This document shows, in pieces, positions 30,454 through 51,493 of a stretch of DNA of 64,000 nucleotides. Made by a program: the position numbers and the translations under genes. Below the pieces are notes generated by a model, which saw only the letters and a program-made list of their open reading frames with translations, did no database searches and had not been told where the DNA came from. How positions within the stretch are numbered: the stretch's first letter is position 1; the number at the start of each line of letters is the position of its first letter. The stretch spans positions 16,393 to 80,392 of the forward strand of contig CALHKG010000015.1 of assembly GCA_938033875.1 (NCBI GenBank), read 5' to 3'. This stretch comes from an uncultured Candidatus Saccharibacteria bacterium (GTDB lineage: Bacteria; Patescibacteriota; Saccharimonadia; Saccharimonadales; Saccharimonadaceae).

Positions 30454-30597
30454 AAAATAATCTATCTCGATTTGTCTTTTATTATTGTAAAAAGTTAGTA
30501 TCATTATCTAATTTACGTACAAGCTCTTGAGATTGTCTAATAAAAAAGGTATAATGGTACGTAAGTTTTATGACAACCTAAAAGAGGAGAATAAATT

Positions 30598-32995: not shown

Positions 32996-33031
32996 GGTGG
33001 GGAATAATTTCTGTAAAAAGACATGAAAATA

Positions 33032-33091
33032 GCCCGCCGAAAACGTACTCAAGTCGAGACTTGATGTCTCAACGAGCTATTTTCGGCGGGC
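33032..33091 (-). terminator. Long-loop hairpin terminator of ORF 33093-33542
   Basis: 12-bp stem GCCCGCCGAAAA/TTTTCGGCGGGC starting 1 nt after the stop. The 36-nt loop holds an inner palindrome TCAAGTC-ga-GACTTGA. T-rich tail on the minus strand. Confidence 0.55.
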
Positions 33092-33092
33092 G

Positions 33093-33542
33093 TTAGAAAA
33101 CCCTTTTAATCGACCAATGTCCTCCGTCCCAGAACAGGACGTAGGGTTCGTCTAGCTTGGCGATTATCTCGAAAGCGCTTGCAAGTCGCTTAGATTCGGT
33201 TACCTGTTCTACAACAGGCCAGATCTCGACTCCTATTCCGGTTTTGGCGGGTTTCCCCTTACTCCATGACCGTGGTACTACCTTGAGTACCATGGTGTCT
33301 CCGGCGTAGACTGCGAAGCCGGTAACTTCATCGAAATCAGACTTCAGAGTTTCAATTCGGTTAATATCTCCGGAGTCGGAGTAGGGGGTGAGATGTTCCC
33401 GTACTAAGTCCTCGATGTGATTTTTGTAACCACGACGAGGTATGGTGCACGCGTTTATTTCCAGAGTGTGCTCCTCCATTTTGATGGAGAGATTAGAACC
33501 TTCCGCGGACCAGTTAGTGTTTTTCTCGGTGATACAAGACAT
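33093..33542 (-). CDS. Hypothetical soluble protein (ORFan cassette A, atypical codon usage)
   Basis: 149-aa ORF with own promoter, SD (AGAGGAAGAG) and terminator, antisense between the KH gene and trmD. C-ending codons are enriched relative to neighbours. Confidence 0.55.
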   Translation of the reverse strand: MSCITEKNTNWSAEGSNLSIKMEEHTLEINACTIPRRGYKNHIEDLVREHLTPYSDSGDINRIETLKSDFDEVTGFAVYAGDTMVLKVVPRSWSKGKPAKTGIGVEIWPVVEQVTESKRLASAFEIIAKLDEPYVLFWDGGHWSIKRVF

Positions 33543-34925: not shown

Positions 34926-35000
34926 TGGCTGGGATGGAGGGATTCGAACCCCCGAATGGCGGGACCAGAACCCGCTGCCTTACCACTTGGCGACATCCCA
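34926..35000 (-). tRNA. tRNA-Gln (anticodon CTG), CCA encoded
   Basis: Reverse complement TGGGATGTCGCCAAGTGGTAAGGCAGCGGGTTCTGGTCCCGCCATTCGGGGGTTCGAATCCCTCCATCCCAGCCA. Acceptor TGGGATG/CATCCCA, anticodon loop TTCTGGT. Confidence 0.9.
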
Positions 35001-38237: not shown

Positions 38238-38474
38238 ATGGGATTATTTGTAAATCAACAAGATCAGCGTAGTGAATTGCAAGAGCGAATTGCAGCGGAA
38301 TTAAGAGAGAAGGCAAAGGCTTCGAGTTTGCAAGAAAAGGCAACTATGGACGGCGTCGACGACATAAGATATTTGGAAGGCACGAAACAGACGACGACTT
38401 TGGCGTGGGCGTGGATTTTAATTGCTATTATGGCCGGTGCGGTGATTGTAATGTTTTTAATGCAAGGACGATAA
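38238..38474 (+). CDS. Hypothetical small protein with C-terminal TM
   Basis: 78 aa. TATACT 38226-38231 lies 6 nt before the ATG. Its stop is 1 nt before the pheS start. Confidence 0.4.
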   Translation: MGLFVNQQDQRSELQERIAAELREKAKASSLQEKATMDGVDDIRYLEGTKQTTTLAWAWILIAIMAGAVIVMFLMQGR

Positions 38475-38475
38475 A

Positions 38476-39519
38476 ATGGTTGACTTAGACGAATTGAAAA
38501 GAGAAATAGTTTTGGCGGTTTCGCAATCCAAATCTCCGCGTGAGTTTTTACGCGATCGACGACTTAGGGAATTGTATGATCAAATCAAGTCATTGCCGCC
38601 AGTTGAGCGTGGTCCGTTTGGCAAGCAGATTAACGAGCTGAAGCAAGCGATTGAACAGGCTATTGCTGCGCGACTGGAAGAGCTGGAAAAAGTTGACTTG
38701 AAACCGATTGACGTTACGGCGCCGATGGACGTGAATTCGTCCAAGCCTGAACTTTTGCCGAGCGAACAAGGCACGATTCATCCGCTGAGCGCTGAAATTG
38801 AGCACATTTCTGAGATCTTTAATCGCATGGGGTTTGTCACGGAAGAGTCCAGAGAGATTGACGATCAATTCCATATGTTCGAGAGCCTGAATTTTCCAAA
38901 AGGTCATCCAGCGCGCGATGATTACGATACGTTTATGACCGAGGAAACTGATTCTAATGGCGATCGTTTGATTGCACCGGCGCATACGTCTACTATGCAA
39001 AATCGCGTGCTAATGAAATATCGCGACAATTTGGAGAAAGGCGAGGCTATTGCCGCTATCGTTCCTGATCGCGTTTTCCGCAACGAAGATTTGGATGCGC
39101 GCCACGAGCATACGTTTTATCAAGTTGAAGGTGTGTACGTTTCACGCCGGGTTAATGTTGGCAATTTGATTGCCACGCTGCAAGAATTTTTGCAGGAATA
39201 TTATGGCAAGAAACTTGACGTTCGCGTTAATCCATTCTACTTTCCGTTCACTGAGCCTAGCTTCGAGTTTGCGTTAAGTTGTCCGTTTTGTGAAGGAAAA
39301 AATCCTGATTGTAAAGTCTGCTCTGGTGAAGGTTGGATTGAGCTACTGGGCTGCGGAATGATTCATCCGAATGTCCTTCGGGCGGCACAAATTGACCCGA
39401 ATGAATATACGGGATTTGCTTTTGGTTGCGGAATCGACCGCTTGGTTATGATGAAGTATGGAATCGAAGATGTCCGTCATTTTGAAAGTGGCAAATTGGA
39501 TTTTTTGGAACAATTTTAA
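38476..39519 (+). CDS. pheS: Phenylalanine--tRNA ligase alpha subunit
   Basis: 347 aa. Class II motifs (HPARD, FRNE, GFAFGCGIDRL). Confidence 0.95.
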   Translation: MVDLDELKREIVLAVSQSKSPREFLRDRRLRELYDQIKSLPPVERGPFGKQINELKQAIEQAIAARLEELEKVDLKPIDVTAPMDVNSSKPELLPSEQGTIHPLSAEIEHISEIFNRMGFVTEESREIDDQFHMFESLNFPKGHPARDDYDTFMTEETDSNGDRLIAPAHTSTMQNRVLMKYRDNLEKGEAIAAIVPDRVFRNEDLDARHEHTFYQVEGVYVSRRVNVGNLIATLQEFLQEYYGKKLDVRVNPFYFPFTEPSFEFALSCPFCEGKNPDCKVCSGEGWIELLGCGMIHPNVLRAAQIDPNEYTGFAFGCGIDRLVMMKYGIEDVRHFESGKLDFLEQF

Positions 39520-39524
39520 GCAAT

Positions 39525-40157
39525 ATGAAACTTCGACAGATTAAGGATTTTTTGTGTAAGAATCGCCTTCAGGCGCTCTGCATTCTTAATGGTGTCGTTT
39601 TGGCTGTGGGCTTGATCGTGGCGATGCTGCTTTCTGATGATACTCGGTGGACGAACTGGAGCTTGAGTAGATTGGGCGAAACCACCTCGAACCGTTTGTC
39701 TGCATTTTCGTTCAATTCGGGAGTATTTTTATCTGGTTTGATTATGGGGATGATTGGATTTTTTATGAATCGTGGTTATCTTAAACTTGGTCAAATTCGC
39801 TCTGCTCGGATATCTGGCTGGATACTTTCATTGTTTGCGATTTGTATGATAGGAGTGGCGCTTTGTCCGAACGATACGATGCACGCGGCGCATTTTGTTT
39901 TCTCGCGCGGCATCGTGATATTGATGGTACTTTTGATGTTTATTTTGCCATCGAGTTTGAGCTATTTAACTCATCGTGAGCGAATCTCATCTTTCAGTTT
40001 TCCGATTTTTGCGGCAATTATAGCGGCGCAAGGTTACGCGATGGGCAAGTTTTGGTTTGTGATAGTAGAAGTTTTATTGGGAATTTTTGCGACGATGTGG
40101 CTAGTCCTGGTTTGCCGTCGAATGGAACTTAAATTGTCCGACCTGAAAACTTCGTAA
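39525..40157 (+). CDS. Hypothetical polytopic membrane protein
   Basis: 210 aa, ~6 TM. Starts 5 nt after the pheS stop. Confidence 0.5.
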   Translation: MKLRQIKDFLCKNRLQALCILNGVVLAVGLIVAMLLSDDTRWTNWSLSRLGETTSNRLSAFSFNSGVFLSGLIMGMIGFFMNRGYLKLGQIRSARISGWILSLFAICMIGVALCPNDTMHAAHFVFSRGIVILMVLLMFILPSSLSYLTHRERISSFSFPIFAAIIAAQGYAMGKFWFVIVEVLLGIFATMWLVLVCRRMELKLSDLKTS

Positions 40158-40175
40158 AATGCTATAATTACTTCA

Positions 40176-40390
40176 AAAGGAGTAATTATGAATCACACAA
40201 TTTTTGACGACATCGTATCTGGAAAAATGAAATCTTGGAAGATTTGGGAAGATGAGAAATTCCTAGCATTTTTAACACCGTTTCCAAATACGCCGGGCTT
40301 TACCGTGGTGATTCCGAAGCAGAATCCGGGCGATTACGTATTTTCTTTGGACGATAATTTATATTCCGAAATGATGCAGGCAGTGAAAAA
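40176..40390 (+). repeat. Direct repeat copy 1 (215 nt, identical to 41885-42099)
   Basis: Base-by-base comparison gives 215/215 identity at offset 1709. Covers the SD plus the first 203 nt of the HIT ORF. Weaker similarity continues to ~40410. Confidence 0.95.
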
Positions 40391-40562
40391 AGTTGCTGGT
40401 ATTTTGGAAGCGGTAAGTTGGACTTTTTGGAACAGTTTTAAGGAGCTATCGCACACGATAATAGTAGTAGCTCAAAAACTCGTAATAAAAGAGGCAGTTC
40501 TGTGTGCCGATAGAGAATTTGTTGCAGCGAGAGAGATCGCTAAAAAAGATAGGAGGAGGTAA
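40188..40562 (+). pseudogene. Truncated/chimeric HIT gene (5' duplicate lacking the histidine triad)
   Basis: The first 68 codons are identical to the intact HIT gene at 41897. Then an unrelated 56-codon tail with no HxHxH-type motif. Confidence 0.8.
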
Positions 40563-40563
40563 A

Positions 40564-41886
40564 ATGGATACACAACAATTTGACGCACTCATCATTGGTT
40601 TTGGCAAAGCTGGCAAAACATTGGCGGTAGCGCTGGCAAATGCGAAAAAAAAGGTAGCGCTAGTGGAGCGGTCGCCAAAGATGTATGGCGGCACCTGTAT
40701 TAATATTGCTTGTATTCCTACTAAGGTGCTAGTCAATGCAGCCGAACATCATCAAAGTTTTGATGAGGCGATGGCGCATAAGACAACAGTGGTAGCGCGG
40801 TTGAATGAGAAGAACTATCATATGCTTGCGGATCGTGAAACAGTGAGCGTCATTGAGGGTGAGGCATCGTTCGTAGATGATCGTACTGTGAAGGTTGTGG
40901 CGGGTAGCGACGAGCTAGTAGTTAGTGCACCGCAGATTTTTATTAACACCGGTGCGGAATCAATCATCCCAGATATTCCAGGTGTTGATAAGCCGTTTGT
41001 GTATACTAGTACTGAATTGCTGGATAGAATGACGCAGCCAAAACAGCTAGCTATCATTGGTGGCGGTTATATTGGGTTAGAATTTGCCTCAACTTATGCC
41101 AAACTTGGTACAAAAGTAACAGTATTTGAGAGGGGCGATGCTCTGCTTGCACGTGAAGATCCAGCAATTGCTCGGGCTGCTACTGAAGCATTGCAGGCAC
41201 AGGGTATTGAGATTGTGTTTAGTGTGGATGTGACAGCGATTGAGGGTGAGTCTACTGCGACGATTCGCACAGTAAATCATGATGATTACGCTGGTTATGA
41301 TGCGGTTTTGATGGCTACGGGCCGTCGCCCGGCAACGATGAGCTTGAATTTACCAGCTGCTGGTGTAGCGACGGATGAGCGCGGGGCAATTGTGGTTGAT
41401 GAAACACTTCGCACTAGTCGGTCGCATATTTGGGCAATGGGCGATGTAACGGGCGGGCCACAATTTACCTATGCGTCGCTGGACGATTTTCGGATTGTGA
41501 GAAGCCAGTTGCTGGGTGACGGTCTGTACACTCGCGCCAAACAAAAAACCTTGCCGTACGCGGTCTTTATGCAAACGCCGCTAGGTCGGGTGGGTATGAC
41601 AGAGGCTGAGGCGCGTGCGACGGGGTGCGAAATTATCGTAAAAGAGCTGCCTGCTATGGCGATTCCACGCCTGCATGTTGATAATGCTACAACAGGATTG
41701 CTGCGTGCGGTGATTGATGCAAACACTGAACAAATTTTGGGTGCTAGTTTATTGTGTCGTAACTCACCAGAAGTCATTAATATTATCAAAACTGTAATGG
41801 ATAATGGCCTGCCATATACTGTGCTGCGTGACCAAATATTCACTCATCCAACGGTGAGTGAGGCATTAAACGATTTATTTACATAA
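40564..41886 (+). CDS. rclA: Class I pyridine nucleotide-disulfide oxidoreductase, RclA/YkgC-like
   Basis: 440 aa. IIGFGKAGKTLA dinucleotide motif, redox CxxxxC in YGGTCINIACIPTK, second GGGYIGLEF motif, C-terminal FTHPTVSEALNDLF. AGGAGGAGG SD before ATG 40564. RclA subfamily assigned from memory of E. coli RclA, not verified. Confidence 0.75.
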   Translation: MDTQQFDALIIGFGKAGKTLAVALANAKKKVALVERSPKMYGGTCINIACIPTKVLVNAAEHHQSFDEAMAHKTTVVARLNEKNYHMLADRETVSVIEGEASFVDDRTVKVVAGSDELVVSAPQIFINTGAESIIPDIPGVDKPFVYTSTELLDRMTQPKQLAIIGGGYIGLEFASTYAKLGTKVTVFERGDALLAREDPAIARAATEALQAQGIEIVFSVDVTAIEGESTATIRTVNHDDYAGYDAVLMATGRRPATMSLNLPAAGVATDERGAIVVDETLRTSRSHIWAMGDVTGGPQFTYASLDDFRIVRSQLLGDGLYTRAKQKTLPYAVFMQTPLGRVGMTEAEARATGCEIIVKELPAMAIPRLHVDNATTGLLRAVIDANTEQILGASLLCRNSPEVINIIKTVMDNGLPYTVLRDQIFTHPTVSEALNDLFT

Positions 41887-42099
41887 AGGAGTAATTATGA
41901 ATCACACAATTTTTGACGACATCGTATCTGGAAAAATGAAATCTTGGAAGATTTGGGAAGATGAGAAATTCCTAGCATTTTTAACACCGTTTCCAAATAC
42001 GCCGGGCTTTACCGTGGTGATTCCGAAGCAGAATCCGGGCGATTACGTATTTTCTTTGGACGATAATTTATATTCCGAAATGATGCAGGCAGTGAAAAA
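41885..42099 (+). repeat. Direct repeat copy 2 (215 nt)
   Basis: Identical to 40176-40390. Confidence 0.95.
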
Positions 42100-42355
42100 G
42101 GTTGCAAATATCTTGGAAAAAGCCTTTGATACGCCGCGAGTGGCATTGATTTTTGAAGGGACGGGTGTGGCGCACGTTCATGCCAAGTTGGTGCCGCTGC
42201 ATGGCGATCTGGCTAGCCAAACTGATGTGTGGAGTAAAGAGACTGAGTTTAGTGAAGTGTATCGTGGCTGGCTAACGACTGCAGAAGGTCCAAAAATGGA
42301 TGACGCTCAATTGGATGAAATTCAGGCACGAATTTTAGCCGTGCAAGGTAAATAG
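41897..42355 (+). CDS. HIT family protein (variant triad H-V-H-A-K)
   Basis: 152 aa. HIT-like N-terminus (IFDDIVSGK...FLAFL.PFPNTPG..VVIPK) and AHVHAKLVP in place of HxHxHxx. Confidence 0.78.
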   Translation: MNHTIFDDIVSGKMKSWKIWEDEKFLAFLTPFPNTPGFTVVIPKQNPGDYVFSLDDNLYSEMMQAVKKVANILEKAFDTPRVALIFEGTGVAHVHAKLVPLHGDLASQTDVWSKETEFSEVYRGWLTTAEGPKMDDAQLDEIQARILAVQGK

Positions 42356-42362
42356 TAATTTT

Positions 42363-43358
42363 CTATTTTGATCCTAATTTTACGTCTTTTCCTTCGTACA
42401 TATTCAAATAGAACGGATATAATTTGTCGGCGTGCTTTTTAACCTCGTCTTGGTTTAAGGCTACAATGTCGTGACCGATACCAAATGAGGCCGGAATTGA
42501 ATAATATTGGAATTTGGCGCCAGAAACTGCAGCCATTTGCTTAGGTATGTTGACTGCGAGATTTTTATCAATTGCGGTGTCGTTTTCGCTCGTTACAACC
42601 CCGACGTATTTTAATCCTGGAGCTTTGAGGTCGGATTTATAGTTCTTTGCGATTATTATATATTTTCCGAGGGCGCGGTATGACAAATTGCTACCTGTGA
42701 ACGAATCTGGGAGAATATTTCGTCCGTAAAGATTTCGTAAAAGCGGAATTTTCCAGGAAGGAGTTTCTGACGCTGAAGGCTGATAAAAAGGTGATAGAAA
42801 TAGCGCTCGTGATATCGTCTGGCTATTGTACTGAGTAATCCAGGTTGCCATATTGGCGCCACCAGAAAGCCCTACAACGCCCACTTCATCGCCCAGGCCG
42901 CTGATAATACTGGTATTGGAATTCATAAACTGCGCCATTGCTGGAATGGTAATTTCTCCGTGTCGTTTGTTGTCTGTCAGACCGTGACTGGGGACGCGGG
43001 GAATATAGACGTTATAGCCGGCATTGAAAAAGGTGTCGCCCAAGTCTGCGAATTGCTGTGGGCATGCGCTTACGCCATGAATCATCATGACGGCTTTGGT
43101 GGTTTTTTTGCCATGGGTTTTAATAATCGATCGGCATTCTGGTCTAACGTCGGTATTTGAAGTGTCTTCACTAACAGTACGATTTGCAGCGGCGATGGCG
43201 TCGTCATAGCTCAATTTTTCAGAGCTCGAAGATTGCAATTGCTTGGATGTTGCTGGCCAAAAGAAAGCTGCGGCGACTAGTAAGGCGGCTATAATGACAA
43301 TTGAGCAGACTGCCCAAATAGTAATTTTTACGATGCGATTTTTTCGTGAAGTATTCAT
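42363..43358 (-). CDS. Alpha/beta hydrolase, membrane-anchored
   Basis: Nucleophile elbow GLSGG, N-terminal TM. Start set to ATG 43358 (MNTSRKN) because the longer ORF would overlap the upstream CYTH gene by 80 nt. Confidence 0.62.
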   Translation of the reverse strand: MNTSRKNRIVKITIWAVCSIVIIAALLVAAAFFWPATSKQLQSSSSEKLSYDDAIAAANRTVSEDTSNTDVRPECRSIIKTHGKKTTKAVMMIHGVSACPQQFADLGDTFFNAGYNVYIPRVPSHGLTDNKRHGEITIPAMAQFMNSNTSIISGLGDEVGVVGLSGGANMATWITQYNSQTISRALFLSPFYQPSASETPSWKIPLLRNLYGRNILPDSFTGSNLSYRALGKYIIIAKNYKSDLKAPGLKYVGVVTSENDTAIDKNLAVNIPKQMAAVSGAKFQYYSIPASFGIGHDIVALNQDEVKKHADKLYPFYLNMYEGKDVKLGSK

Positions 43359-43410
43359 GGGTATATTATATTGGTTGCGAGTGGAGTTGTGAAGTTTTGT
43401 AGCGGTTTTC

Positions 43411-43977
43411 TTAATAACCCATGCAAATATCCCGATAAGGTCGCGTTGCAATTTCCATTGAATCCAGGCCGAGTTTGGTTTCAACTTCACTAATCGTCAT
43501 CAGCGCACTAGCCTCATCATCTGACAAAACTTCAACTTCTACGAAAGTCCCGGCGTCTTTGATTGCGTCGATAGCTACCGTTGCCTGCGGAAAATCAGAG
43601 GACTGAAACGAGCGACGGTATTTGTTGACCTCGACCAGTTGCATCATACCGAGGTTTGCCAGTAGCTGCTTGGCGGTTGCCGCATCTTCAGGCTGAATTG
43701 GTAGGTTTGTCTCGGGCTTGATGATTACATTATTCTCCGCATGCGTCGCAGCGGTCGTTGCTGGCTTATATGTTACCTCAGCAAAACTATCACGCTGGCG
43801 AATCCGCAAGCATTCAATCGTTTGCATAAAATCGACATCAGGACGAGAATAATACGTATCAATTTCGCGGAGACTACTCTTTAGCTCAAAACCGATGTTT
43901 TGCAACCGCCCGATTAGCTCTTCAATATTGCCCGTTAGTTGGCGCTTGCGTTCGATTTCTAGTAGTTTTTTGGTCAT
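43411..43977 (-). CDS. CYTH-domain protein (class IV adenylate cyclase / triphosphatase family)
   Basis: 188 aa. N-terminal ExExK (LEIERKRQL). Size and pattern of CyaB/ThTPase tunnel enzymes. Confidence 0.78.
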   Translation of the reverse strand: MTKKLLEIERKRQLTGNIEELIGRLQNIGFELKSSLREIDTYYSRPDVDFMQTIECLRIRQRDSFAEVTYKPATTAATHAENNVIIKPETNLPIQPEDAATAKQLLANLGMMQLVEVNKYRRSFQSSDFPQATVAIDAIKDAGTFVEVEVLSDDEASALMTISEVETKLGLDSMEIATRPYRDICMGY

Positions 43978-44062
43978 TTGATAGCCTTTCTTATGGAAGT
44001 GTAGATATTTGAATATTTATTTATATGATGGTTTAATTATAGCAAGAAAGGCGAATAATTTT

Positions 44063-44401
44063 ATGACTACACACCAATTAAAATTGGCGACCGAGCCGTT
44101 TAATGCTATTATTTCTGGCAATAAGACTATCGAGTCGCGATTATATGACGCCAAACGACAGAAAATCCAGATTGGGGATCGGATTATTTTTACAAATAGA
44201 GATAATTCCGAGCAAACTGTTACCGCTGAGGTTGTTGGTTTGCTGAGATACGCGACATTTCGTGACTTATTTTTCCACAATAATCTGCGAAAGTTCGGCG
44301 GTGATAATGTCGAATGGTTAGAAAATCAAATTTCTGAATTTTATTCTCTCAGCGACCAGCTGGAAAATGGCGTGATAGGTATCGAATTTGAAATATTTTA
44401 A
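44063..44401 (+). CDS. ASCH-domain protein (native composition)
   Basis: 112 aa. ASCH pattern (L..EPF.AI.SG.KT.E.RLYD.KRQ.I..GD.I.F). Start at ATG 44063 after AGAAAGG. Confidence 0.72.
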   Translation: MTTHQLKLATEPFNAIISGNKTIESRLYDAKRQKIQIGDRIIFTNRDNSEQTVTAEVVGLLRYATFRDLFFHNNLRKFGGDNVEWLENQISEFYSLSDQLENGVIGIEFEIF

Positions 44402-44466
44402 TGATATAATAATGACCATCCTATCAGGCTACACTAAAAATCGTAGTCATCACAGGAAGGTGTACT

Positions 44467-45804
44467 ATGACTGAAGCGCTAGTCAATGATATCATTGTAC
44501 GTCCGGCAAGGGCGGACGATTTCGATTTCGTCGCGGATCTTATGATCCGGGCGCTCACACCGTTTTATGACGGTGACCACTACGCACACGCACGGCGTAT
44601 CTTTGATACGCACATGGCAGGCGGTGTTGACCGCGTCGGCCAGTTCTCGGCCGGACAGCACATGTTCATCGCCGAGAGTGATGGGCAACCCGTGGGTGTC
44701 ATTCATGTTGTCAACAAGAAACAGGGGACTGTCAAGATCAGCCCTCTCATTGTTGACACGGCATACCGAGGAAAGATGGGCGTCGGAAGCGTGTTGCTCA
44801 AGCACGCTGAAGATTTCGCCCGCAGCCTCGATGCTCGACAACTGTACTGCACTGTCGCGTCGCCGAACCAGAAGGCGCTTCAGTTCTTCCTCCGGAAGGG
44901 TTTCCTCGTCACTGGCACGGCTCGCAACCACTACAAGATGGGGGTCGATGAGCACATGCTGTACAAGCAGCTCGTTGACGAGGCGGGGTTCGACTCGCCG
45001 AATATCTCTGTGGTTCCGTTTAACGAGAGTCAGCACGCCGACAGCGCGCGAGCTCTCATCCTGTCGCAGACGAGTGACGACTTCGAAGGAGTGGACGACA
45101 GTTGGGTTGACGCCCTTTTCGCTGGCTACCGTCGTATGGAATCTGGCGACGTCAACAACAAGTTCAAGATCATCTTTGTAGCTGAGTGCAACGGTCAGGT
45201 TGTTGGTGTCGCTGGTGTGACCCCGAAGAAGGGGCAGCCTATCAAGCTGATGCCTCTCGTGGCGAAGTCGGAAGCAGCTTTTGAGGCGCTCATTATCGAC
45301 CTTCAAGGGCTGTTGGAGGATTACGGTCGCAAGCTGTACATCCACCTCGTCCCTGAGCCATGGCAGGTCGTCTGTCTCCAGCGTCACGGCTGGAGCCTGG
45401 AGGGCGTGTTCCCGGGAGGGTATGCGCCTGCCAGCGTCGTTCAGCAGTGGGGAATCAGTCTCAACAAGAAAGGAGTGTCTATGCGTAAGATGCGCATCAA
45501 GCGTCCATACTACGACGCAATCATGTCCGGCAAGAAGACTCTCGAGGTGAGAGTCGGCTATAACAGCATCAAGCGGCTGAAGGCTGGTGAGCTGCTACAG
45601 CTCGAGACCGGTCACACATCGGGCGTGGTACGGATCAAGTCGATACGTATTTACCGTAGCTTCGCCGACATGCTGGCGGCTGAGCCGTGGCAGCAGATCG
45701 TGCCGCAGGCAGAGAGCGAGAGGGAGGCTCTCCGTCTCCTTCGTAAGATCTACCCTGGCCACAAGGAGAATCTTGGTGTTCACGTCATCGAGGTTCAAAA
45801 GTAG
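44467..45804 (+). CDS. GNAT-GNAT-ASCH fusion protein, compositionally foreign (high GC)
   Basis: 445 aa. First GNAT has the acetyl-CoA motif YRGKMGVGSVLL. A second GNAT-like domain spans ~190-330. The C-terminal ~105 aa form an ASCH domain (MRIKRPYYDAIMSGKKTLEVRVGY...GELL). Hand counts of 37/60 and 33/60 G+C versus 28/60 in a uvrA line. Long spurious ORFs in other frames are typical of GC-rich DNA. Confidence 0.75.
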   Translation: MTEALVNDIIVRPARADDFDFVADLMIRALTPFYDGDHYAHARRIFDTHMAGGVDRVGQFSAGQHMFIAESDGQPVGVIHVVNKKQGTVKISPLIVDTAYRGKMGVGSVLLKHAEDFARSLDARQLYCTVASPNQKALQFFLRKGFLVTGTARNHYKMGVDEHMLYKQLVDEAGFDSPNISVVPFNESQHADSARALILSQTSDDFEGVDDSWVDALFAGYRRMESGDVNNKFKIIFVAECNGQVVGVAGVTPKKGQPIKLMPLVAKSEAAFEALIIDLQGLLEDYGRKLYIHLVPEPWQVVCLQRHGWSLEGVFPGGYAPASVVQQWGISLNKKGVSMRKMRIKRPYYDAIMSGKKTLEVRVGYNSIKRLKAGELLQLETGHTSGVVRIKSIRIYRSFADMLAAEPWQQIVPQAESEREALRLLRKIYPGHKENLGVHVIEVQK

Positions 45805-46149
45805 GACAACGAGGGAGGTGCGCATCCTCTAGGCTGGAGAAATCCACCTGAACAAATGCGAGTGACTTGGGCTAGTGTAACTGTTATCTGACTTAAGATA
45901 CAGAACAGACTATACTGTCTTTAATGAAAACACTAAAGATGAATTATTTGAAGAAATCGGTCAAGTTTGGGTTGATATTGTTGAGAATAATACACAGGAT
46001 GTCGCGTAATAAATCAAATAATACAATCGTCCTAGTGTTATCGGCATATCACATGTCTAGACCCGCATCTATTGTGTATGCTAAAATAAAACCACAAATA
46101 ACATCCGCGCGCCGTTTCGCAGCAAGAGGATGTTTATAATCTGAAAGAG

Positions 46150-46650
46150 GTGACTTTTATTAAATCCATCATCTGTAAAGACGTCTTCGGCAATCAATAT
46201 ACCGTTCCTGTTGACGAACTAAATATTCGCGTCGGCGTGTACGCGGTGATTATTGAGGATAATAAGATTCTTTTAACTCGGCAATGGGACGGATATAGCT
46301 TGATTGGCGGCGGTGTCGAGAAAGGCGAAACGATCGAGGAATCAATTGTCCGTGAAGTCAAGGAGGAAACTGGACTGACTATCACGCCAGATAAAATCAT
46401 TCACCAAGCAACCACTTTCTTCAAGCGCAACACTGAGTCGCAAGCCAATCAGTCAATCCAACTGTACTTTACCCACAGTCAGCTGCACGGGCAAATCAAT
46501 AACGACAACATAACCGACGGTGAGAAGACTTATACTAACGGCACGCCAGAATGGGTTGATCTGGATAAGATTGACGATATAAACTTTCGCCACAGCGTGG
46601 ATCTAAAAACAATTTTACAGGCGTATATTTCGCAATCTCGTACCCGCTAA
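46150..46650 (+). CDS. NUDIX hydrolase
   Basis: Nudix box GGGVEKGETIEESIVREVKEETGL. GTG start after AAAGAGG. Confidence 0.75.
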   Translation: MTFIKSIICKDVFGNQYTVPVDELNIRVGVYAVIIEDNKILLTRQWDGYSLIGGGVEKGETIEESIVREVKEETGLTITPDKIIHQATTFFKRNTESQANQSIQLYFTHSQLHGQINNDNITDGEKTYTNGTPEWVDLDKIDDINFRHSVDLKTILQAYISQSRTR

Positions 46651-46879
46651 TAGTCGAATAATAATGAAACTATCCAAACCCGTAATTATCACCGGCGAAT
46701 AATTATGTTCGAGGAGTCTACTATGGCGAGGGTAATTATGCTATAGCCCATATATATCCAGAAATTAGAGGAGATCATAAGGCTTGCTATAGGGGCAGTA
46801 AGAATGTTGGGAAGATTTATTTTAATAAAAAAAGAGCGCGCAAAGTCTGCTCGTAGTATGGGAAAATATGTCGGACAGA

Positions 46880-47293
46880 TCAAGCCTCGGATAAATGTTT
46901 TAAATAATCAATAGCATCTATATAATAAGGATCTGCGCCCTCTGGAATATTAGTATCTAATAATTCCGATAACGTCATCCAGCGGTATTTTTTATGCTCC
47001 CAGCTCAATTTAACAGGAATGTCGGCTTTATCTATAATTATCTCAAAAAGTACATGTCTTGTGTTTTTGTGCTGTCTAACAAATAGCTTTTTTAAGTCAT
47101 TTGGATATATACATATGCCAGTCTCTTCTTGCACTTCTCGCGCAGTCGCCGTCTTAGAGGTCTCTTCCGATTCTACTTCTCCTCCAGGAAAATCAAGATG
47201 CCCAGGGAAATTAGGGTGCGTGTCTCCCCTATAAAGCAGCAAATATTTACCATTTTTATTCTTAATAAGCGCTTTTGATACTGCTTTAACCAT
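46880..47293 (-). CDS. NUDIX hydrolase
   Basis: Nudix box FPGGEVESEETSKTATAREVQEETGI. 137 aa. Confidence 0.8.
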   Translation of the reverse strand: MVKAVSKALIKNKNGKYLLLYRGDTHPNFPGHLDFPGGEVESEETSKTATAREVQEETGICIYPNDLKKLFVRQHKNTRHVLFEIIIDKADIPVKLSWEHKKYRWMTLSELLDTNIPEGADPYYIDAIDYLKHLSEA

Positions 47294-47333
47294 ATTTCAA
47301 TTGTAATGAAGAAGCAATATTTGATCAATGTGA

Positions 47334-47538
47334 TGTACTGTGAACAATGAAAAGCGCCAAAAAATCCAACTTGGAGACGAAGCCACTTTTACGAATCGAG
47401 AAAACACCAGTAAGGCAGTCACTGTAAGAGTGGTTGGTTTATTGCGTTGCCAAACCCTTCAATAACCTTTTCATTCATAATAATCCTGCAAAATTTGGCG
47501 GCGTTAATATTTCATCTTCAGAATCTTTTCTCTACTAG
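47334..47538 (+). pseudogene. Decayed ASCH gene remnant (5'-truncated, frameshifted)
   Basis: Translation NEKRQKIQLGDEATFTNRENTSKAVTVRVVGLLR then, after a +1 shift, VAKPFNNLFIHNNPAKFGGVN. Collinear with residues ~30-90 of the ASCH protein at 44063 (KRQKIQIGDRIIFTNRDNSEQTVTAEVVGLLRYATFRDLFFHNNLRKFGGDN). In-frame stop at 47461-47463. Confidence 0.6.
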
Positions 47539-47552
47539 AAAATCGGCTAGAG

Positions 47553-48452
47553 CTAATAATCCAGGACTATCGTCGCCTTTACTTGTTTTAGAATTGCGTT
47601 CATGTTTGCGACGTTTATAGTTTTCGCTAGGTCATTTCTGGATAGTGGCGTAGCGGTTTGTTGATAAAAATATATGGGCACTGAAATGTAAAATGGGTCA
47701 GACGTGAAAGATTCGGCAAGGTTTTTTAGGTCGGTTGCGTGCGAGGATATGTTAAAGTTTTGTAAATATGTCTGTATAGTTTCACTTGAGCTCAGTTGAG
47801 CAAGGTCTGTATTTTTTACGGTGTAGGTTTGGCTGGTGTAATTGCCATCATAGTACGCTATAAACTTTCCTGGGCTGGACGGATAGGATGAGATTTTATC
47901 AAAACAAATGTCACGCACTAGATCTAAAAGTATTGGGTATGTGCAGAAAAATGCGGCAGTCAATTCATCGCTGGCGTCAGCAATTTCTATATCAATCTTA
48001 ACGTCTGTAAAATCCTTCGGACTATGACTGATTTTAAGAGGAGAAATCTTAGATTTTGGGTGTGAATTGCTGGGAGTGGTTTTTTGACTATCGATAAAAT
48101 ATTTTTGACAAAGAGCGAGCTGCTCTTGTAATAGCGTCATGTCTGCTATATCAATGTTGGATTGCATCTCGGCTTCTATGTGTGAGATGGACTGTTGAAT
48201 AAGAGACGCCTCAAAAGGCGTAATATCGTTGATGGTTTTTTCAAATAATGCATTAGACTCGCTTGTGAATAGTGCGGACGTAAAAAATACGCTTGATTCG
48301 CTAGTCGTGCCATCCAATTCCCCAGTGAAAGCTCGGTTGCTGCCAGCTTTTTCCGTTTCCTTTAAGAATCGCCTAATAATCAGATGCTCAAACAAGTGGC
48401 ACGTGTCGTGGTCTGCTGGTAAAGAATATGCTGAATGCAAGTTGTGGATCAT
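47553..48452 (-). CDS. Hypothetical protein with N-terminal HxxEH motif
   Basis: 299-aa ORF. HLFEH near the N-terminus resembles the inverted zincin motif of M16 peptidases, but the protein is far shorter than M16 enzymes. Assignment is tentative. Confidence 0.45.
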   Translation of the reverse strand: MIHNLHSAYSLPADHDTCHLFEHLIIRRFLKETEKAGSNRAFTGELDGTTSESSVFFTSALFTSESNALFEKTINDITPFEASLIQQSISHIEAEMQSNIDIADMTLLQEQLALCQKYFIDSQKTTPSNSHPKSKISPLKISHSPKDFTDVKIDIEIADASDELTAAFFCTYPILLDLVRDICFDKISSYPSSPGKFIAYYDGNYTSQTYTVKNTDLAQLSSSETIQTYLQNFNISSHATDLKNLAESFTSDPFYISVPIYFYQQTATPLSRNDLAKTINVANMNAILKQVKATIVLDY

Positions 48453-48493
48453 GAGTTTATTATATCAGTATGAAAGTTAGCCTAAATCTTATA
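48451..48493 (+). repeat. Orphan duplicate of the pheT promoter-proximal region and first 8 codons
   Basis: 48461-48493 matches 48971-49003 at 32/33 positions (TATATCAGTATGAAAGTTAGC[C/T]TAAATCTTATA). Weaker similarity extends back to 48451/48961. Offset 510 nt. Confidence 0.85.
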
Positions 48494-48525
48494 GGCTCGG
48501 TGGCGTGTTTGTACGAAGAAAAGCT

Positions 48526-48837
48526 TTATTTATCATAACCAAACAAACTTCCAGCTCCCGCCGCTTTATATAAAGCATTTACCGCTAAGAGTATATCGTT
48601 CTGAAGTGTTGGCTGATTGTCAATATTCTTATCATAAAAATCCCGCAATGACGCCGGATAGATTTCATCGGGCATATCGTACAGGAATGTATTCTGTAGC
48701 AGTTTCTTCTGTTCGGGTGAAATATTATTAAAAAACTCTGGATGAAAATCGTAAAACCATTCTAGGCGAGTTTGTAATTCTAGATATTTATCGTAATCCA
48801 TAGCTATATTATAATTCAGGGGATGACCCTTCTCCAA
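48526..48837 (-). CDS. Hypothetical protein
   Basis: 103-aa ORF with no recognised motif. Lies inside the 510-nt unit bounded by the pheT 5' duplication. Confidence 0.4.
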   Translation of the reverse strand: MEKGHPLNYNIAMDYDKYLELQTRLEWFYDFHPEFFNNISPEQKKLLQNTFLYDMPDEIYPASLRDFYDKNIDNQPTLQNDILLAVNALYKAAGAGSLFGYDK

Positions 48838-48979
48838 GTCTGAAGAGAGGAGTGCCTTTGAGGATTATCTCCCGCTTGTTCAAGGATGGCTGTATTTTGC
48901 CCTAGAGCAGTTTTACCTTGGTTATTTATAGTTTTCTAAGGTCGATTACCTGCCGGTAAAATGATATAATTATATCAGT

Positions 48980-51493
48980 ATGAAAGTTAGCTTAAATCTT
49001 ATAAAACAATTGATTAATTTTGAGTTGCCGTCAGTTGACGAGTTGGTGTCGCGGGTAAATCAGCAACTTGGTGGTGTCGAGGAAGTGATTGATCTGAAGG
49101 CCAAATATGGTGGCGCGCGCATTGTGCGGGTTGTTGAATGCGAAAAACATCCGAATGCGGATCGTTTGAGCGTGACTAAAATTGACGATGGTGGCGTAGC
49201 GGACGCTCCAAGGGATGGCAATGGTTACGTGCAAGTAGTTTGCGGTGCGCCGAATGTTCATGCTGATATGTGGGCAATTTGGTTGCCGCCAAAAAGCACC
49301 GTCCCAGCAAGTTTTGATGACGCCGAGCCGTTCGTGCTGGATGCGCGACCGCTGCGTGGAATTCTAAGCCAGGGCATGCTGGCGGCGGCTGACGAGCTGG
49401 CGATTGGTACGGATCACGAGGGAATTATTGAGATCAATGAGCGTGATATTCCGGCTGGCGTTACACTTCAGGCTGGTGCGAGCTTTGCGGAAGTGTTTGG
49501 GCTGGATGATTACGTGCTGGAAATTGAAAATAAGATGTTTACGCACAGGCCGGATTGTTTTGGGCAACTCGGTGTGGCGCGCGAAATTGCTGGCATTTTT
49601 CATCAGCAGTTTAATAGTCCTGACTGGTATAATGCTATTCAAGAATTCGCAGATAGCGATGGCTTAGAGCTTGAAGTGTTTAATGAAGCCAATGAGCTTG
49701 CACCCGCATTCTCTGCGATTGCTATAAAAAATGTAGATATTCATCCAAGCCCGTTGTGGTTGCGATGTCAATTAGTTGCAATGGGCGGAAAGCCAATTAA
49801 CAATATTGTTGACGCAACGAATTATGTGATGTTTATGACGGCGCAGCCGACTCATGCTTATGATTATGACAAGTTGCGCGGGCATAAACTCGGCGTGCGA
49901 ATGGCGCATGATGGCGAAAAAGTTGGTTTGCTTAACGGCAAGGAATATGAATTGACGGCTGACGATATTGTGATCGCTGACGGCGAAGGTGTGATTGGGC
50001 TAGCGGGAATTATGGGCGGCGTTGATACGGAAGTTTCGGCTGAAACGAAGAATATTGTCCTTGAATGTGCCAATTTTGATATGTACGCGCTACGTCGTAC
50101 GGCTATGCGTCACGGAATTTTTACAGATGCGCTGACCCGTTTCAATAAGGGACAGTCGCCAGCACAAATTGACCCTGTCTTAAAATGGTTAATTGGTATG
50201 GTTGGTGGTGAGCAAGCTAGTCCTACGCTATTTAAGAATCATTCTTCATTGCGACAAGTGTTGGTCGATGGTAAGCACTGGTACGGTGGATTGTTGATTC
50301 CTAAAAGGTTTGTCGAAGAACGTCTGGGTGTTGACTTTGCCGAGAATGAGATTGAGACACTACTAAAGAATGTTGAATTTATCGTTGACGATGGTAATAA
50401 ATATGACGAAGCTGGCGTGATGGTTTACAGTCCATTTTGGCGAACAGATATTGAGCTTCCTGAGGATATTGTTGAGGAAGTTGGGCGATTATACGGCTTT
50501 GATAGACTGCCGCGCCATTTGCCAGAGCGAAGCATTAAGCCTGCGCCGAAGAATGAGTGTCGTGAATTGAAACAGAGAATTCGCCAAAGTTTGTCGCGAG
50601 CTGGAGCGAACGAAGTTTTGACGTATAGTTTCGTTCATGAGCGAGTTTTGAAAAATTCCGAGCAAGATCCGAGCCGTGCGTATCGCTTGAGCAATGCGCT
50701 TAGTCCAGACTTGCAATATTACCGAATTAGCATTTTGCCGAGTTTGCTGGATAAAGTTCACGCCAATATAAAATCTGGACATGACGAATTTATGCTGTTT
50801 GAAATTGGTAAAATTCACGATAAAAAATTAGGATTTAACGATGAGAATTTGCCGATTGAAAAGACTTTCATTGACGGAGTTTATGCGAATAAAAAACCTC
50901 AAGTTGGCGCGCCGTTTTACAAGGTGAGAAAAATTGCTGAAAGGCTGATGAAGGATTTGAGTGTTGAGGTTGATTTTGTGAAGATTACGGAATCTGACAG
51001 CGACGTTCCAGCGCCATTTGATGCGAAACGCAGCGCTTGGATTGTGGCGAATAACGGCGACAATTTGGGGATTGTTGGCGAGCTGGTTTCATCTGCTCGA
51101 CGCAACTTCAAATTGCCAGATTACACGGCAGCGTTTTCTATTGATATTGAAAAATTGCAGAAAAATCTGAGTAAAAATCAGGGCTATAATTACCAGCCGT
51201 TAAGTCGTTTTCCGTCGACTGCCAGAGACATTTCATTGAAAATGGATTCGAATGTTGATTATGCGAAGGTTTATGCTTGCGCTGAAGAAGTTGCGAAAAA
51301 ACACGGTGAGTTACAAATTAGTATAACGCCGATTGCGATATATCAGCCAAAAAATGACGATTCGACAAAAACTGTAACTTTGAATGTAAAATTTACGAGC
51401 ACTGAGCGGACGCTGGAAGATAAAGATATTGCGCCGATTATTGAGGAGATTGCCGCGATGGCTGCGGAAGAATTCGACGCCGCTCAGGTTTAA
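48980..51493 (+). CDS. pheT: Phenylalanine--tRNA ligase beta subunit
   Basis: 837 aa. N-terminal tRNA-binding OB domain (CEKHPNADRLSVTKID), B3/4, B5 and C-terminal FDX-ACB domains. Confidence 0.95.
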   Translation: MKVSLNLIKQLINFELPSVDELVSRVNQQLGGVEEVIDLKAKYGGARIVRVVECEKHPNADRLSVTKIDDGGVADAPRDGNGYVQVVCGAPNVHADMWAIWLPPKSTVPASFDDAEPFVLDARPLRGILSQGMLAAADELAIGTDHEGIIEINERDIPAGVTLQAGASFAEVFGLDDYVLEIENKMFTHRPDCFGQLGVAREIAGIFHQQFNSPDWYNAIQEFADSDGLELEVFNEANELAPAFSAIAIKNVDIHPSPLWLRCQLVAMGGKPINNIVDATNYVMFMTAQPTHAYDYDKLRGHKLGVRMAHDGEKVGLLNGKEYELTADDIVIADGEGVIGLAGIMGGVDTEVSAETKNIVLECANFDMYALRRTAMRHGIFTDALTRFNKGQSPAQIDPVLKWLIGMVGGEQASPTLFKNHSSLRQVLVDGKHWYGGLLIPKRFVEERLGVDFAENEIETLLKNVEFIVDDGNKYDEAGVMVYSPFWRTDIELPEDIVEEVGRLYGFDRLPRHLPERSIKPAPKNECRELKQRIRQSLSRAGANEVLTYSFVHERVLKNSEQDPSRAYRLSNALSPDLQYYRISILPSLLDKVHANIKSGHDEFMLFEIGKIHDKKLGFNDENLPIEKTFIDGVYANKKPQVGAPFYKVRKIAERLMKDLSVEVDFVKITESDSDVPAPFDAKRSAWIVANNGDNLGIVGELVSSARRNFKLPDYTAAFSIDIEKLQKNLSKNQGYNYQPLSRFPSTARDISLKMDSNVDYAKVYACAEEVAKKHGELQISITPIAIYQPKNDDSTKTVTLNVKFTSTERTLEDKDIAPIIEEIAAMAAEEFDAAQV

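Follow-up and report, generated by a model that had tools for sequence, protein, structure and literature searches.

Many bacteria reportedly carry hotspots of horizontal gene transfer (HGT), flexible genomic islands that lie between core genes, as Oliveira et al. are said to have set out in 2017. The capsule (cps) locus of the pneumococcus, between dexB and aliA, holds alternative gene sets that are exchanged by transformation. Natural transformation in Acinetobacter baylyi and Streptococcus pneumoniae also brings about homology-facilitated illegitimate recombination. The last term is the one used in PMC6382021 and PMC8116780. Here we describe a locus with features of all three in a stretch of 64,000 nucleotides (nt), the window, which is a contig segment from a human oral Candidatus Nanosynbacter (Saccharibacteria, or TM7). 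The locus is the interval between pheS and pheT, the genes for the two subunits of phenylalanyl-tRNA synthetase (PheRS). The genomes of Saccharibacteria are tiny and highly syntenic, and little is understood of the ways in which adaptive genes reach them. Recombination hotspots between core genes are already well known, so what this interval offers is a clean case study rather than a new principle: it documents, at base-pair resolution, genes gained with no help from mobile elements in a genus whose competence has been shown experimentally. All coordinates below are positions in the window, and L-numbers label homologous loci or contigs in related genomes.

We conclude that the interval is very probably an old, genus-wide variable region, in which the cell's own recombination machinery, and no self-mobile element, brings cassettes in, removes them and exchanges them. 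Its two anchors are on the same strand, 9,460 bp apart by open reading frame (ORF) map and domain searches.

38476-39519, + strand: pheS, PheRS alpha subunit (Pfam tRNA-synt_2d, 2.3e-78), the conserved left anchor
48980-51493, + strand: pheT, PheRS beta subunit (Pfam B3_4, B5, tRNA_synthFbeta and FDX-ACB), the conserved right anchor

The space between them is occupied, on both strands, by twelve ORFs and one ASCH remnant, with five of the genes on the minus strand. A preliminary description of this DNA had placed the end of pheS at 39519 and the start of pheT at 48980 with a list of genes in between, and the ORF map and domain searches agree with it on all of these. A scan of one genome per species put the window in Candidatus Nanosynbacter, and a look-up of exact proteins found a near-identical contig, L085, from a human oral metagenome.

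The separation of pheS and pheT is old. We mapped the window's proteins onto 80 species-level relatives, whose pheS identity runs from 99 to 80%, and in none of them (0 of 80) are the two genes adjacent. Where both lay on the DNA that was fetched (32 complete gaps), they are 3.0-9.9 kb apart, with a median of 6.1 kb. Ten further loci have no pheT within 10 kb downstream of pheS, and five of these ten have rplF-rplO-secY soon after pheS. The most distant clade numbers seven loci; pheT is upstream and inverted in six of them, and in L080 it was not on the fetched DNA. Because no relative among the 80 has the genes side by side, there has been no recent insertion into an intact pheST operon in this genome. 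The split is lineage-wide, and both the separation and half of the interval's genes are ancestral to the genus. The preliminary description had seen an accessory island splitting the two genes. That holds for the recent cargo, two cassettes of about 4.8 kb in all, and fails for the split itself and for the half of the interval that is backbone. It had also proposed a check of synteny, in which general unlinking of pheS and pheT in this lineage would tell against its view; gene content does vary, as at a hotspot, and the absence of adjacency in all 80 relatives goes part of the way towards that refutation.

What surrounds the interval is far steadier than what fills it. All 80 loci have pheS; the order RmuC-MIP-s78-pheS stands upstream in 73 of the 80, and RmuC is downstream of pheS and inverted in L062, L065, L072, L074, L075, L079 and L080. 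On the other side, the order pheT-FKBP-TrxB is kept wherever the relatives' DNA reached that far. The 10 kb upstream of pheS is collinear among close relatives save for two small indel sites. Within the interval, by comparison, the closest clade (relatives with flanks 92-97% identical to the window) has 13 gene orders among 14 complete gaps, and the window's own order recurs only in L007. The ORFs of all complete gaps fall into 57 clusters. Running through this variation is a backbone of about 4.7 kb, DUF998-HIT-hydrolase-CYTH-ASCH-orf299-orf103, and the smallest interval in the close clade, 4,664 bp in L014, holds exactly this set. Backbone genes turn up in clade after clade, at a divergence close to that of the flanking genes, so that about half of the interval reads, on sequence comparison, as long-term resident genes. 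Only about 4.8 kb, in two cassettes, looks recently exchanged: the RclA-like gene in the slot between DUF998 and HIT, and a GNAT-GNAT-ASCH/Nudix/Nudix block in the slot between ASCH and orf299.

The first cassette carries the strongest evidence. Its parts and its immediate surroundings are these.

39479-39520, + strand: resident 3' end of pheS, the original of repeat D4 (repeat search)
39525-40157, + strand: DUF998 membrane protein (Pfam DUF998), a backbone gene that starts 5 nt past the pheS stop
40176-40409, + strand: left copy of the HIT repeat (ribosome-binding site and 5' fragment), 98% identical to 41885-42118
40188-40562, + strand: truncated chimeric HIT ORF of 124 amino acids (aa), in which Pfam HIT covers residues 14-76 only
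40401-40409, + strand: putative illegitimate joint, about 9 nt (ATTTTGGAA) in which the HIT homology ends and the pheS-end homology already begins
40401-40445, + strand: foreign copy of the pheS 3' end; the RclA leader comes next and reaches to about 40563
40504-41886, + strand: RclA-like flavoprotein disulfide reductase, the cargo of cassette 1, with its likely start at ATG 40564 (440 aa)
41885-42118, + strand: right copy of the HIT repeat, the homologous side of cassette 1
41897-42355, + strand: intact HIT gene (Pfam HIT)

Repeat search and alignment make the HIT direct repeat 234 nt long at 98% identity; a duplication here had been noted before, with a length of 215 nt that does not hold. 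A third scar, repeat D4, lies at its edge. It repeats the final 42 nt of pheS (39479-39520) at 40401-40442 and overlaps the HIT repeat, D1, by 9 nt. This copy did not come from the pheS next door: it is 86% identical to the window's own pheS end and 95.6% identical to the genuine 3' end of pheS in L039, L030 and L029, where pheS runs straight into the RclA leader. Both parental arrangements, pheS-DUF998-HIT and pheS-RclA-HIT, are still found separately among the relatives, and the window has pheS-DUF998-HIT(5' 234 nt)-[foreign pheS end-leader-RclA]-HIT.

The sequence of the cargo tells the same story. RclA is 94.6-96.3% identical in nucleotides to its counterparts in species that match the window at only 77-81% in pheS and RmuC, and four-fold sites compared with L039, L027 and L058 score 0.87-0.91 in RclA against 0.37-0.39, which is saturation, in the RmuC and pheS flanks. 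Within the close clade RclA is 98.3-99.5% identical and the flanks mostly 92-96%, with four-fold values against L016 and L012 of 0.98 for RclA and 0.80-0.89 for the flanks. Sliding-window identity steps at about 40400 and about 41900-42000, matching the borders of the cassette, and at the right HIT repeat identity to relatives falls from 98-100% to 76-90%. Cassette 1 is of foreign-species origin and has recently spread between species. Its joint is common to L003, L006, L007, L009, L012, L015 and L016, and because these seven loci, a complete chromosome among them, share it, the joint is real and older than this genome.

Two other observations concern the same few kilobases. In the intact HIT gene, the 3' half (42119-42355) belongs to a divergent allele, 91.6% identical in nucleotides to L014 and 75-79% to other close relatives, in DNA whose flanks are about 95% identical; a mosaic breakpoint thus falls inside HIT. 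Compared with L085, the window differs at 27 positions in 21 kb, 23 of which cluster at 39318-40407. This cluster of single-nucleotide polymorphisms (SNPs) spans the 3' end of pheS, DUF998 and the HIT fragment and stops at the 40401-40409 joint. Either recombination has recently left a tract here or the assembly merged mixed strains into a consensus, and no clear candidate for a donor emerged among the loci compared.

The second cassette is larger, about 3.1 kb, and its history is written in the ASCH gene.

44009-44401, + strand: ASCH gene, chimeric (Pfam ASCH; five-way alignment)
44402-47494, both strands: cassette 2, absent from L012, L013, L014 and L016 and present in L006, L007 and L023
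44467-45804, + strand: GNAT-GNAT-ASCH fusion (Pfam GNAT and ASCH), a compositional outlier
46150-46650, + strand: Nudix hydrolase 1 (Pfam NUDIX, 1.3e-17)
46880-47293, - strand: Nudix hydrolase 2, MutT-like (Pfam NUDIX, 1.7e-15), convergent with Nudix 1
47344-47503, + strand: ASCH pseudogene remnant of L018 type, 92% identical to the L018 ASCH, with an in-frame stop

In the five-way alignment the 5' two-thirds of the ASCH gene are the resident allele and the 3' third is the L018-type allele that goes with GNAT. The remnant at the far end, already recognized as such in the preliminary description and confirmed by its match to the L018 allele, is the 5' part of the same L018-type gene. It is truncated at a microhomology, TTGGCGGCG, that is present both in ASCH and in the spacer downstream of resident ASCH. 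Nudix 2 sits at different positions in L015, L017 and L018.

The fusion gene was rightly singled out at the start as the one gene of foreign composition, with a GC content of 56.5% and a third-position GC (GC3) of 0.69, where the window's long ORFs have a mean GC3 of 0.444 (standard deviation 0.062). Its domain reading fared less evenly. Profile searches detect one GNAT domain, and the second has no match in Pfam or in a PDB sequence search; a tandem arrangement comes from the predicted topology and from Foldseek matches to tandem-GNAT proteins, with a match for the ASCH fold too, so by predicted fold the high-GC protein would be a tandem GNAT plus ASCH. All Nanosynbacter orthologues (L006, L007, L018, L023 and L028) have the same GC of about 56.5% and GC3 of about 0.69, even at 87% nucleotide identity. 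An origin in an Actinomyces/Schaalia host was considered and found unsupported: the nearest relatives outside Nanosynbacter are only 36-52% identical and of mixed taxa, the few that carry names being Uhrbacteria, Saccharibacteria and Actinophytocola. We saw no sign of a recent transfer from host to epibiont and found no close donor lineage. Nudix 1 has a different distribution. It is 91% identical in amino acids to a protein on an unrelated TM7 contig of 41% GC (L088/L089, 8934-9428), where the adjacent orf299 homologue is 57% and CYTH 28% identical, which suggests that it may have passed recently, as a single gene, between divergent lineages. The L088 neighbourhood reads Ham1, Nudix, Nudix, orf299, CYTH, OLD, FtsX, with no pheS or pheT within 10 kb.

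How might the cassettes have come in? We envisage a resident backbone of about 4.7 kb that carries two imported cassettes in this genome. The first, of about 1.5-1.7 kb, comes from a species with the RclA-like reductase directly after pheS, and still holds the last 42 nt of the donor's pheS. Its right end would have formed by homologous recombination in HIT, and its left end by illegitimate joining inside HIT at about 9 nt of microhomology, an event that would duplicate 234 nt of HIT. The second, about 3.1 kb of GNAT-GNAT-ASCH and two Nudix genes, would have entered through a crossover inside ASCH, leaving a second ASCH copy that was later truncated at microhomology. Both cassettes bear one signature, duplicated homology around a permuted insert. 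One homologous crossover with one illegitimate joint (homology-facilitated illegitimate recombination) could produce it; single-crossover integration of a circularised fragment would fit equally well. The DNA probably entered by natural transformation. This is the most likely route because competence and insertion by homologous recombination have been demonstrated in N. lyticus: both were shown experimentally in strains TM7x and ML1, and transformation depends on comEC in Southlakia, the sister genus (PMC10633639).

Several points weigh against this account. Transformation is a presumed route of entry, and transduction is an alternative. Conjugation-like type IV systems and phages exist in Patescibacteria. 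The scars are common to several sister species and so are not private to this genome; each could go back to a single old event, with lineage sorting or the spread of alleles afterwards, and "repeated" acquisition in this particular genome would go beyond what shared scars can say. The term "hotspot" is meant relative to about 20 kb of surroundings. Parsimony of RclA presence on the flank tree needs at least 6 changes, equal to random, a weak test on a near-star tree. Finally, the function of the RclA-like protein comes from homology, and it scores below the NCBIfam equivalog cut-offs.

Could the interval instead be what is left of a classical mobile element (integrative island, transposon or prophage) after its mobility genes were lost? 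The foreign base composition of the GNAT gene would suit such an element, as would direct repeats flanking the inserted segments and an OLD-family nuclease, a kind of gene often borne by elements, at the same site in L009 and L022. The repeats, however, are pieces of resident HIT, pheS, pheT and ASCH rather than att sites, and no ORF of the interval has an integrase, transposase or recombinase domain by Pfam. No tRNA gene flanks the interval, the nearest (34926-35000) lying beyond RmuC and MIP, 3.5 kb upstream of pheS; terminal inverted repeats are absent and inverted repeats in general are at chance level. Island DNA has no phage or plasmid match, and neither RclA nor Nudix 1 has relatives on viral contigs. 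We think a decayed element very improbable, and the preliminary description, which had noted the lack of integrase, transposase and flanking tRNA and proposed recombination-driven gain at one site without a classical element, is upheld by the differing gene content, the low-divergence cassette, borders that fall in resident genes and show duplicated homology and microhomology joints, and the missing mobility genes. Vertical inheritance of a large ancestral interval, with differential gene loss and no horizontal exchange, has just as slim a chance. HIT, CYTH, hydrolase and DUF998 are indeed spread over the clades, with roughly the divergence of the flanks, and recombination between the 234-nt repeats could delete RclA. 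For cassette 1 such a history is nonetheless refuted by the gap in four-fold sites between RclA and its flanks (0.87-0.91 against 0.37-0.39), and it sits badly with the foreign allele type of the pheS-end copy, with a Nudix 1 at 91% identity on a contig whose neighbours are at 57% and 28%, and with GC outliers in both directions.

A mosaic of this kind might also be manufactured by assembly, co-occurring strains being wrongly joined across the 234-nt repeat. L085, a k127 metagenome contig, hardly differs from the window, and the repeat is longer than that k-mer; the 23 SNPs of that second assembly cluster at 39318-40407 and end at the joint. Against this, the joints between HIT fragment, pheS end, RclA and HIT recur in seven other genomes, in independent assemblies that include the complete chromosome L015 (NZ_CP157587.1), and joints are also present in two whole-genome shotgun genomes named as TM7 strains, L009 and L017. 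We give mis-assembly almost no credence. A functional explanation of another sort would make the interval a cluster for nucleotide housecleaning or salvage (HIT, two Nudix, CYTH, ASCH, GNAT-ASCH) kept near PheRS. Aminoacyl-tRNA synthetases make aminoacyl-adenylates and Ap4A, and HIT and Nudix enzymes hydrolyse both. Nucleotide-acting domains do recur at the site, in adenosine deaminase (L028, L054 and L060), a His_Phos_1 protein and an SLOG/DprA-like fragment; a Ham1-Nudix-Nudix-orf299-CYTH neighbourhood exists in another TM7 lineage; and Saccharibacteria lack nucleotide synthesis (PMC10633639). That neighbourhood in L088 is away from pheS and pheT, which argues against a specific tie to PheRS, and the genes of the interval lie on both strands, are each individually present or absent, and share the site with unrelated cargo: a two-component system, an FtsX/ABC transporter, the OLD nuclease and RclA. 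We regard such a cluster as rather doubtful; it is in any case compatible with a recombination hotspot rather than an alternative to one.

The RclA-like protein deserves a closer look. Starting at ATG 40564 it has 440 aa, the length found in other species. The RclA homologues of more distant TM7 (55-62% identical) are found at other loci, with neither pheS nor pheT nearby. It matches E. coli RclA (6KGY) over its full length with 472 bits (residues 2-437 of a 437-aa query, 40573-41886, which begins at residue 24 of the 460-aa ORF), and it keeps the CxxxxC motif, CINIAC aligned with CINIGC. Its scores fall short of the curated cut-offs: 601 against 740 bits for NF040477, 536 against 650 for NF041853 and 530 against 537 for PRK07251. 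RclA and Har reduce hypothiocyanite (HOSCN), an oxidant of saliva and airways (PMC9335216, PMC9483559). Our protein resembles the HOSCN-reactive reductases RclA, Har and MerA in its full-length similarity to RclA, in CxxxxC and in coming from the human mouth, where HOSCN is made. It differs from the RclA family in its sub-equivalog scores and in lacking the partner genes rclB and rclC, and its activity is a prediction. A protective role in the mouth is plausible, and the gene may have spread owing to protection from salivary or neutrophil oxidants (HOSCN, HOCl). A literature search found no paper linking RclA to Saccharibacteria, nor any description of the pheS-pheT locus.

The rest of the backbone is made of genes that have stayed in place, with a further duplication scar beside pheT.

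42363-43490, - strand: alpha/beta hydrolase (Pfam Hydrolase_4, weak), backbone, in 44 loci
43411-43977, - strand: CYTH protein, of the class IV adenylate cyclase / triphosphate tunnel family (Pfam CYTH, 9e-25), backbone, in 35 loci
47553-48452, - strand: orf299, a conserved TM7 protein with 438 relatives, widespread in oral TM7
48451-48493, + strand: copy of the pheT 5' end (19 nt upstream and the first 8 codons), 91% identical to 48961-49003
48526-48837, - strand: orf103, between the two copies of the pheT 5' end, in 20 loci

DUF998 is present in every close-clade locus and is 63-68% identical in amino acids in L043, L044 and L076. Public annotation gives the hydrolase 331 aa (42363-43358), where the ORF has 375. 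CYTH passes its curated cut-offs (TIGR00318, 83.6 against 57.95 bits; Pfam CYTH, 87.9 against 23.2). Two genes, orf299 and orf103, had been described as ORFans and are not: the relatives counted above run to 438 for the one and 20 related loci for the other, even though neither has a Pfam match. In orf299 an HxxEH motif (H19-x-x-E22-H23) and Glu93/Glu95 are invariant in 30 sequences down to 55% identity. Its structure model has a predicted local distance difference test score (pLDDT) of 67.5, and 49 of the 50 Foldseek matches listed are to the M16 fold, among them bc1 core subunits, insulin-degrading enzyme and MPP, all weak (E >= 0.008, template-modelling score about 0.3). The orf299 protein is probably a divergent single-domain M16-like metallopeptidase.

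The pheT scar, put at about 33-43 nt in the preliminary description, is 43 nt at 91%, and its joint is common to 11 sister loci. The slot between the copy and pheT itself holds orf103 in most relatives and Nudix 2 in L015; in another clade orf103 comes directly after pheS. Within 48962-48982 an extended -10-like element, TGATATAAT, ends 9 nt ahead of the pheT ATG, and its hexamer has decayed in the upstream 43-nt copy (GTTTATTAT). The pheT start has no Shine-Dalgarno sequence, and the gene may have its own transcript, an mRNA almost without a leader. Scans for sigma-70 promoters and terminators gave counts no higher than shuffled expectation, and Rfam found no T-box or other leader RNA for pheS or pheT at gathering thresholds, nor any in the island at E<=1. 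Like the canonical pheST operon, then, the locus has both genes intact, on one strand, with pheS before pheT; unlike it, 9.5 kb that includes genes of the opposite strand separates the two, searches gave no known leader RNA, and pheT has its own extended -10-like element directly upstream.

A small ORF of 78 aa (38238-38474), with a C-terminal hydrophobic segment, has its stop 1 nt ahead of the pheS start codon, and the two may be translated together. Of the 80 loci, 74 have conserved it (47-100% aa identity), and the remaining six lack this region or break off within it at the end of a contig; a Pfam search gave no match. The two indel sites mentioned above, farther upstream at about 30000-30500 and 33000-33500, are of about 500 bp at most.

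Relatives use the interval for other genes as well. Besides RclA and the GNAT/Nudix block, the exchangeable segments include an OLD-family nuclease of 621 aa (AAA_15 and TOPRIM), which at 34% GC is a compositional outlier in the direction opposite to the GNAT gene and its GC3 of 0.69; it takes the place of CYTH in L009 (14954-16819) and L022 (14764-16629) and is likely a defence cassette using the pheS-pheT site. Another TM7 lineage has, close to its orf299 homologue, a 622-aa protein with the same domains, AAA_15 and an OLD-like TOPRIM (L088, 15409-17277). For the interval itself we also considered an anti-phage defence island and rejected it: PADLOC found no defence system, only generic Nudix and HIT similarity. 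More distant species have adenosine deaminase, a two-component system, an FtsX/ABC transporter and others at the same site. The adenosine deaminase gene of a more distant clade sits exactly between RclA and HIT (L060, 12547-13629; also L028 and L054), a position that marks another insertion point within the interval. In other clades (L037, L045, L059, L064, L066, L068 and L073) a protein of about 170 aa, with partial similarity to DprA (PF02481) and SLOG (YAcAr), is directly upstream of pheT.

What does all this mean for these organisms? One gene resembling an oxidant defence has recently crossed species boundaries among human oral Nanosynbacter. Much of the cargo consists of genes for proteins acting on nucleotides (HIT, Nudix, CYTH, ASCH, adenosine deaminase, and Ham1 in L088), which suits an organism unable to make them. 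For genetic work, the locus offers a naturally permissive insertion site together with natural homology arms. A bolder idea, which we put forward tentatively and think less probable than not, is that the cassettes carry short pieces of neighbouring genes (pheS 3', HIT 5', ASCH, pheT 5') as homology arms, making the interval a competence-driven exchange site for the whole genus, with the RclA sweep and the concentration of nucleotide enzymes as its outcome. If that were so, an RclA-like HOSCN/chlorine reductase would have swept across the Nanosynbacter of human mouths.

Set beside the systems with which we began, the interval shares something with each. As in homology-facilitated illegitimate recombination, there is one homologous anchor (HIT or ASCH), one joint at about 9 nt of microhomology, a diverged donor (the pheS-end copy and leader are of L039/L030/L029 type) and a genus that is competent (PMC10633639). 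The difference is that here the event is read from its scars, with the anchor duplicated and recipient DNA not deleted. Like cps, the locus holds alternative sets at one site, which would be swapped between strains by transformation with crossovers in conserved flanks; cps, though, encodes one pathway under diversifying selection, whereas here mixed, small and independent genes seem to be exchanged cassette by cassette at internal backbone genes. It is closest to the HGT hotspots, with core flanks, content that differs in close relatives, cargo of mixed function and composition, no genes for self-mobility and a turnover ascribed to homologous recombination in the flanks. What sets it apart from them is that the flanks are two subunit genes of one essential enzyme, operonic in most bacteria, that the host is an ultra-small epibiotic bacterium of the candidate phyla radiation (CPR) with a genome of about 0.7 Mb, and that the interval also keeps an old resident backbone.

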